Virus record (IMG/VR): IMGVR_UViG_2534681998_000020
Source of the DNA: a virus
Taxonomy: Duplodnaviria; Heunggongvirae; Uroviricota; Caudoviricetes
DNA length: 6,638 bases
Reading direction: 5' to 3' (one strand)
Position numbers: made by a program. This document shows positions 6,001-6,638 of the stretch, piece after piece; position 1 is the first letter of the stretch, and every line of letters begins with the position of its first letter.

Positions 6001-6638
6001 TTCCGGATGCCGCGCCAGCGGCATGTAGGGGCAGCTCACAAAACGGAAAAAATTGTACGCTAAGCCTCGCCAGGTGAACTGAATTCATTCCGATATGGGA
6101 ATTCCCATATCGGGCGAAAACGGTTTGCTGTAACGGCAGAGTTAAGTAGGATTGCTGCGGGTGCTTGAGGCTATCTGCCTCGGGCATGAACACCAACGGC
6201 AGATAGATAAAAGCCCCACCCGACTATAAATCGAAGTGAGGCCCCTATATGCTCGTCACATATAGATTGCCTCTTACGGACCGAAAGGTCAAGGAGAAGC
6301 AGGCTATGAAGCAGCAAAAGGCGATGTTAATCGCCCTGATCGTCATCTGTTTAATCGTCATAGTGACGGCACTGGTAACGAGGAAAGACCTCTGCGAGGT
6401 ACGAATCCGAACCGGCCAGACGGAGGTCGCTGTCTTCACAGCTTACGAACCTGAGGAGTAAGAGACCAGGCGGGGGAGAAATCCCTCGCCACCTCTGATG
6501 TGTCAGGCATCCTCAACGCACCCGCACTTAACCCGCTTCGGCGGGTTTTGTTTTTTCCTGGCATTCTGGTTTACAATTCGCACGCCAGCCTGAACAACTG
6601 GCACCTGCTGCGCCAGCAGAGACAACCGATGGCGCACG

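Follow-up and report, generated by a model that had tools for sequence, protein, structure and literature searches.

Described hok/sok systems and their relation to the locus

The closest characterised relative of the locus analysed here is hokW-sokW (with mokW) of the Stx2 phage Sp5/VT2-Sakai of E. coli O157:H7, a working type I toxin-antitoxin (TA) module in which the toxin is active and repressed by Sok (PMC8621323). HokW production rises on prophage induction, and the module speeds lysis and doubles phage release after mitomycin C (PMC8621323). The hok/sok (parB) system of plasmid R1 is plasmid-borne and has a proven role in post-segregational killing; its Hok peptide is 44% identical to the related HokW (literature value). 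E. coli K-12 carries hokC/mokC/sokC (gef), in which an IS186 located 20 bp past the stop codon removes the 3' UTR, including the fold-back inhibitory (fbi) element, and, in the Qin prophage, hokD (relF), which was inactivated by rearrangement (PMC12214031). The HokD peptide is toxic when expressed, and intact chromosomal hokA, hokB and hokC have been reported without post-segregational killing (bioRxiv 10.1101/2025.08.07.668861); a complete anatomy is therefore no guarantee of activity.

The window, i.e., the whole 6,638-bp stretch of DNA analysed here (IMG/VR virus record IMGVR_UViG_2534681998_000020), carries a hok gene near its 3' end. The hokW locus is prophage-borne like that of the window, encodes a 51-aa Hok that is 90% identical, has ~86% nucleotide identity overall and shares the tac, ucb, mok (in frame, 57 nt), dcb, hok Shine-Dalgarno (SD) and fbi blocks; mokW and hokW as annotated in VT2-Sakai are of the same type as the Stx2-phage locus that was matched. 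The two loci differ in the Sok-encoding middle of the leader (a long GCGTC...GACGC hairpin with TTGCCT-17-TAACCT in hokW, a short hairpin with TTGACC-17-CAATCT in the window), in the C-terminus of Hok (VDYESEK vs. TAYEPEE) and in their place in the phage genome, and the hokW-type locus that we examined (Stx2 phage I) is without the 3' terminator hairpin of the window. K-12 hokC, with ~80% identity to the window for both nucleotides and Hok, has the same leader architecture, an in-frame mok, and a putative Sok promoter with an identical -35 (TTGACC), a 17-nt spacer and a similarly poor -10. The element set and the predicted folding switch are also common to R1 hok/sok, in which the fbi likewise lies ~50 nt past the stop codon; the blocks conserved between the R1 type and the window are GCTTGAGGCT-TCTGCCTC, GGCAGA-AG, AGCCCC, GCCTCTTAC and CAAGGAGAAG, while the R1 Hok peptide is only distantly similar to that of the window.

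K-12 hokD is 98.5% identical to the window, but only over positions 6292-6555 (from the hok SD to the terminator, fbi included); the promoter, tac, ucb, mok start, dcb and Sok gene, all upstream of 6292, are absent from it. In K-12, relB, relE and hokD are contiguous, consistent with the first-pass annotation, which gave hokD as the third gene of the relBE operon, and hokD is fused behind relE, whereas the window hok lies behind paa. Downstream of hok, K-12 and the ‘PPompW’ prophages alike have rem, a small ORF, ydfU and a Q-like antiterminator. Since homology breaks at the hok SD, with the end of relE upstream, K-12 hokD is the same prophage gene after loss of these upstream elements, in agreement with the published inactivation by rearrangement (PMC12214031). 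The contrast between the window and K-12 thus arises because K-12 hokD is a truncated derivative, and the window gene is the untruncated form of the K-12 hokD lineage. A definition of hokD drawn from K-12 (directly behind relB-relE, without leader, mok or sok) does not describe the window locus.

We consider it very probable (roughly 0.85) that positions 6090-6557 of the window form a structurally complete hok/sok-family type I TA cassette of the hokD/hokW type, with an R1-like mechanism. This reading combines elements, family matches, a predicted switch and conservation, all of which were computed, with transcript ends, promoter activity, processing, toxicity and a biological role that we infer. 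As a hok/sok-type cassette, the locus is already known and very widespread, with no feature outside the known family. It has the complete ancestral-type form that most E. coli, including O157:H7, carry in their lambdoid prophages, and it is the K-12 reference hokD that is truncated; beyond the correct annotation of a textbook hok/sok module, this is of little import.

Prophage setting and distribution

ORF calls and Pfam matches identify the whole window as part of a lambdoid prophage, namely its immunity and early-right region. The minus strand encodes a cI/DicA-like repressor (872-1279); a Cro/DicC-like gene (1356-1583) has the orientation of hok. YdaT-like, DnaT/O-like and P-like replication genes and a DUF1627 gene lie 3' of the Cro/DicC-like gene and precede paa (5212-5970, + strand), which encodes a 252-aa protein of periplasmic-binding fold (Pfam SBP_bac_11), annotated in RefSeq and PPompW records as ‘AcfC family adhesin Paa’. 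The hok ORF is the last gene of the window, 3' of paa and separated from it by a hairpin and T-run that likely form the paa terminator (5972-6003, + strand). The gene content of the window does not include relBE, and the earlier observation that a binding-protein gene and its terminator, rather than relBE, lie directly upstream of hok is correct. In matching genomes, the RefSeq annotation has a ‘fimbrial protein’ pseudogene with a frameshift (L003 5426-5959) in the interval from the DUF1627 gene to paa; at window positions 4482-5100 the ORFs are all short and lack a Pfam match. Another small hairpin (ATGCCGC gcca GCGGCAT, 6007-6024) is located between the paa terminator and a palindrome.

This palindrome, CCGATATGGGAATTCCCATATCGG (6090-6113, strandless), is a perfect one of 24 nt; it is positioned 46-69 nt 5' of the predicted hok +1, where the conserved hok cassette has its left edge in some relatives. 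Nine loci have exact copies 5' of their hok cassette, several others have 23-nt versions, and homology to the window starts at the palindrome in the relatives that carry it. It is not followed by a T-run on either strand, and may serve to bind a protein or mark a boundary of recombination.

With 99.9% identity, positions 1-6555 of the window match a prophage found in E. coli O157:H7 strains; 80% or more of the window is present in 556 complete genomes, and the region also occurs in the PPompW prophages of Shiga-toxin-producing strains. For the hok cassette, coverage of at least 80% was found in 3785 out of the 5426 complete E. coli genomes, the copy number per genome having a median of 2 and a maximum of 10, and 546 genome records have it at an identity of at least 99%. 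Its location is the early-right region, between paa and the rem/ydfU/rusA/Q block. The small gene is labelled ‘gef, phage maintenance protein’ (the 70-aa ORF) in GenBank/PPompW records and ‘hokD’ in RefSeq; the RefSeq entry has ‘hokD’ only, with the mok frame, Sok RNA and regulatory boxes left without annotation.

The last ~80 nt of the window (6556-6638) are unlike the O157:H7 and PPompW prophages, where rem comes next, and match other prophages (E. coli AMSHJX01, phage Evi), where a small hypothetical gene and ydfU come directly after hok. This mosaic junction coincides with the end of the T-run of the hok terminator. An IS insertion after the terminator was considered and dropped, as the ‘mobile element protein’ annotated downstream of hok in phage Evi is a 40-aa ORF on the strand opposite the 3' UTR, with no IS.

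The Hok toxin and the mok reading frame

The hok gene (6306-6461, + strand) encodes a 51-aa protein that matches Pfam PF01848 HOK_GEF (E = 1.7e-21; 75.9 bits vs. a cut-off of 22) and is a single residue apart from K-12 HokD (Ile17 vs. Thr17), which bears out its first description as a hokD-like toxin. The NCBIfam Hok models gave sub-cut-off matches only (44.3 vs. 73). The hok SD, AAGGAG (6291-6296, + strand), is where homology to K-12 hokD starts.

The mok reading frame (6249-6461, + strand) is a 70-aa ORF in frame with hok, its ATG at 6249 being 57 nt 5' of the hok ATG. Counted from the first G of the mok SD (GAGG, 6238-6241, + strand), the A of this ATG is 11 nt away; R1 has the same spacing (positions 105 and 116). 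The R1 start codons, at 116 for mok and 174 for hok, are 58 nt apart, which puts mok out of frame, unlike in the window (PMC9841398). For the R1 frame we rely on these published position numbers because the R1-type IncFII plasmid that served as a stand-in for R1 (KY749247) has mok in frame, at 57 nt. The Hok of this stand-in is 100% identical to what we take to be the R1 Hok sequence.

Among 78 prophage hokD-type copies, the mok-hok spacing is 57 nt and in frame in 66 and 56 nt and out of frame in 9; a recognisable mok start is missing in 3 of the 78. K-12 mokC (210 nt) and hokC (153 nt) are in frame and have a common stop codon, and mok is out of frame in divergent loci of Citrobacter and Raoultella. 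Such a scatter of frames agrees with the published view that mok has to be translated as far as the hok start and that the Mok product is not what matters (PMC9841398). An in-frame mok is the usual state of chromosomal and prophage loci, though unlike R1. The in-frame ATG at 6249, its 70-aa ORF and the contrast with R1 stand as they were first noted; an in-frame mok is not unusual, given the 66 of 78 prophage copies and mokC.

The Tyr47 codon of hok (UAC) is followed by GAA (6444-6449), which makes up a UACGAA motif; TadA, a tRNA deaminase, recognises this sequence context. The motif recurs at 6400-6405 (GUA-CGA); editing there would be synonymous. In K-12, A-to-I editing of hokD mRNA at a low level has been reported to change this conserved Tyr to Cys (PMC12214031).

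Leader, transcript and predicted folding switch

The Rfam sok/hok-leader family RF01794, a ‘sok’ model that in practice describes the hok leader, matches positions 6159-6308 on the + strand with 103.9 bits (gathering score 59; E = 1.8e-23). The match covers the full length of the model (1-157 of 157), is on the strand of the hok mRNA and ends at the hok AUG. Block by block, the window leader aligns with those of hokC, hokW and R1-type plasmids. The leader can thus be called intact, as the first-pass annotation had proposed, and the alignment to R1-type and chromosomal hok loci that it suggested shows the leader blocks to be shared.

The full-length hok (mok-hok) mRNA would be ~395 nt long (6159-6553, + strand), with its 5' end (G6159/6160) placed where the homologous R1 mRNA and the Rfam model begin, and its 3' end at an intrinsic terminator (6530-6557, + strand) that consists of a 7-bp stem and 4-nt loop at 6530-6547 followed by a T-run. 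A weak putative promoter (6125-6152, + strand), read from the sequence, the alignment and the homologous 5' end, has the -35 TTGCTG (6125-6130), a 16-nt spacer and the -10 TAGGAT (6147-6152), which is TAGAAT in close relatives. A sigma-70 consensus scan of positions 5900-6638 on both strands gave no site at a threshold of 9 of 12; neither the hok promoter nor the Sok promoter described below reached this threshold, and both were therefore placed by homology.

Positions 6156-6170 (TGCGGGTGCTTGAGG) are complementary to 6511-6526 (CCTCAA-C-GCACCCGCA) over 15 Watson-Crick pairs with one bulged C at 6517. The two elements are 355 nt apart and the 3' element lies just before the terminator, exactly the arrangement reported in the first reading of the sequence. 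The 5' partner includes tac, the translational activator (GGGUGCUUGAGG; 6159-6170, + strand), which is predicted to pair with fbi in the full-length RNA and with ucb when the RNA is 3'-truncated; the 3' partner is fbi (CCUCAA(C)GCACCCGCA; 6511-6526, + strand). With the +1 expected at G6159 by homology, 12 of the 15 pairs would be inside the transcript. RNAduplex energies are -27.3 kcal/mol for the 15-mer and -21.1 kcal/mol for the 12 nt at 6159-6170; the latter value was reached by 8 of 2000 dinucleotide shuffles of the remaining mRNA, and the fbi site is the best duplex for the tac 12-mer anywhere in the rest of the mRNA. Co-folding, which had been proposed as a check, gave the same result: 6159-6170 pairs with 6511-6523 in both the minimum-energy and the centroid folds of 6159-6553, and the minimum-energy fold has an energy of -164.8 kcal/mol, vs. 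-122.4 ± 5.9 for shuffles (z = -7.23).

In the predicted full-length fold, the ucb or anti-SD box (AAGCCCCAC; 6211-6219, + strand) partners the region of the mok SD, with 6213-6219 pairing with 6236-6242. When the RNA is cut in silico to 6493-6500, immediately 3' of the stable 6469-6490 hairpin, tac (6159-6166) re-pairs with ucb (6211-6217), and the dcb box GCCUC (6269-6273, + strand) becomes the partner of the mok SD. The R1 hok mRNA undergoes the same tac/ucb and SD/dcb rearrangement, and its open, processed form is translatable and accessible to Sok (PMC9841398). The predicted folds thus reproduce the published closed-to-open switch of hok. A GC-rich 3' hairpin (6469-6490, + strand) seen in the fold would, by analogy with the R1 model (PMC9841398), end and protect the 3'-processed active mRNA.

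Alternatively, hok expression could come mainly from long transcripts that read through from paa or the early-right operon, as for K-12 hokD from relBE, with no role for a leader that depends on its 5' end. The gene is indeed co-oriented with the cro-like, O/P-like, DUF1627 and paa genes, HokW rises on prophage induction, and K-12 hokD is leaderless behind relE. Against this, the hairpin and T-run at 5972-6003 intervene 3' of paa, the promoter-like TTGCTG-16-TAGGAT is situated 7 nt 5' of the homologous +1, and exact conservation at the nucleotide level extends over tac and its three alternative partners, which makes sense only if tac is at or near a free 5' end. We therefore regard expression mainly by read-through as highly improbable, and a leader-controlled mRNA starting near 6159 is the reading that we retain.

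The 3' UTR hairpin and terminator (6470-6551) also had a weak Rfam match to isrK (27.2 bits vs. a gathering score of 50; E = 0.008). A DNA search for distant matches to the hok 3' UTR in a phage collection recovered only hok loci and short terminator-like matches, with no link to IsrK, a Salmonella prophage sRNA, and the match is treated as chance or generic hairpin-plus-terminator similarity.

A probable Sok antisense RNA

K-12 SokC is annotated as a 59-nt RNA with its 5' end 8 nt inside mokC, and the sequence upstream of sokC reads TTGACC-17-CACTCT at the position expected of a promoter. At the aligned position the window has TTGACC-17-CAATCT on the minus strand (predicted Sok promoter, 6264-6292: -35 TTGACC at 6292-6287, a 17-nt spacer, -10 CAATCT at 6269-6264), which would place the 5' end of Sok near 6257. 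The predicted Sok RNA (6205-6257, minus strand; ~50-55 nt) is delimited by positional homology to K-12 sokC and by its fold: the minus-strand RNA from 6257 to ~6205 folds into a free 5' tail of ~10 nt, a GC-rich hairpin and a U-run end, CUUUUAUCU. The single-stranded 5' tail is complementary to mok codons 1-3 and the mok SD. The first-pass annotation had found no convincing minus-strand promoter for a Sok-like RNA; that view has to be revised, since a promoter-like sequence is present at the sokC-homologous position, albeit below the scan threshold, and is followed by a hairpin and U-run. It appears as good as the promoter read for K-12 sokC, and a Sok gene at the window locus is probable. Together, the placement of a Sok promoter by homology and the finding that an in-frame mok is usual remove most of the apparent novelty of the locus.

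Three types of Sok promoter are found among the 78 prophage copies: most have TTGCCT-17-TAACCT, as does the hokW type, and the other two types are TTGACC-18-TAATCT and the TTGACC-17-CAATCT of the window. The -10 of the window is without the first T of most relatives (TAACCT or TAATCT), with A2 and T6 kept, and is the weakest-looking of the three. With 546 genome records at an identity of at least 99%, the window allele is clearly tolerated.

Proposed mechanism and role

In the mechanism that we propose, the weak promoter would give rise to the ~395-nt mRNA, in which the 5' tac (6159-6170) would be clamped to the 3' fbi (6511-6523) while ucb holds the mok ribosome-binding site, so that the full-length RNA would be inert in translation and would not bind Sok. 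Slow trimming from the 3' end to the 6469-6490 hairpin would remove fbi; tac could then pair with ucb, and the mok SD would shift to dcb. Translation of mok would open the hok start, and the membrane toxin would be made. The short, unstable Sok RNA (~6257 to 6205, minus strand) would pair with the mok start region, leading to destruction of the duplex and preventing toxin synthesis. By analogy with hokW-sokW, the likely role is prophage maintenance and/or help with lysis on induction. If active, a cassette placed between the virulence-associated paa and the late-gene regulator region could aid prophage carriage or the timing of lysis.

Conservation and a variable block in the leader

The potential for tac/fbi pairing is kept in 12 of 12 loci, with fbi 44-54 nt after the stop codon; these include loci of Citrobacter, Raoultella and the R1-type plasmid, in which the Hok peptides are only distantly similar. 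In three of the 12 (Citrobacter braakii, Raoultella scottii and L169), Hok is 29-38% identical to that of the window. Changes in tac and fbi among loci are found in the bulge or convert G-C to G-U pairs, and both sides are shortened in the R1 type (GGCGC/GCGCC vs. GGGUGC/GCACCC). Because tac is almost invariant, the support consists of kept pairing rather than rich two-sided covariation.

In a comparison of 63 distinct prophage copies, conservation of the Hok coding sequence is 99%, with 8 of 10 variable columns at third codon positions. This bears on the possibility that the cassette, like the chromosomal hok loci, is a complete but silent fossil, in which hok is not translated to toxic levels, with or without Sok, and which persists by hitch-hiking and gene conversion. 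The weak hok promoter (TTGCTG-16-TAGGAT, with a G in the -10 where close relatives have TAGAAT) and the degenerate -10 of Sok count in favor of this. Against it, the Hok ORF and all regulatory boxes are undisrupted over dozens of distinct prophage copies, most coding changes falling on third codon positions; hokW-sokW, a close relative, is toxic, Sok-repressed and affects phage release; and the expressed HokD peptide is toxic. We therefore think a silent fossil unlikely, and favor a cassette that retains the R1-like mechanism outlined above.

Variation over the 63 copies is concentrated in ~80 nt (6213-6292) that comprise Sok, its terminator hairpin and its target, where identity to the window is 65-79%. 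Outside this block (6159-6212 and 6293-6526), tac and its stem, the hok coding sequence and the 3' UTR are 94-99% identical to the window. Two copies of one genome (L051 and L068) differ mainly in the 5' recognition stretch of Sok, and the relE/hokD breakpoint of K-12 corresponds to the right edge of the variable block. The pattern suggests modular exchange or a diversification of antisense specificity. A bolder version, in which 6213-6292 is under diversifying selection against cross-neutralisation of co-resident copies and the window allele is a distinct, more easily triggered specificity type, seems doubtful to us; the features of this putative type may be the short Sok hairpin, the -10 weakened to CAATCT and the in-frame mok (70-aa extended Hok), tuned to prophage induction.

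A scan of the genome collection with a pattern of 14 specified bases (GCTTGAGGCTNTCTG) returned mostly chance matches in unrelated phyla. Hok-related sequence was present at 6 of 120 pattern-scan loci: five (L102, L108, L123, L154 and L169) each have a Hok-like ORF, and there is one other leader match. A plasmid match, H91, was rejected as a hok locus, being a hok-less leader remnant. On plasmid p1002-1 (NZ_CP021203.1, IncFIA/IncHI1B; L086 701-850) there is a hok-type leader with tac, ucb, a long Sok hairpin and a mok start, which diverges ~20 nt past the mok ATG and is without a hok ORF; it is a toxin-less remnant that may still specify a Sok-like RNA.
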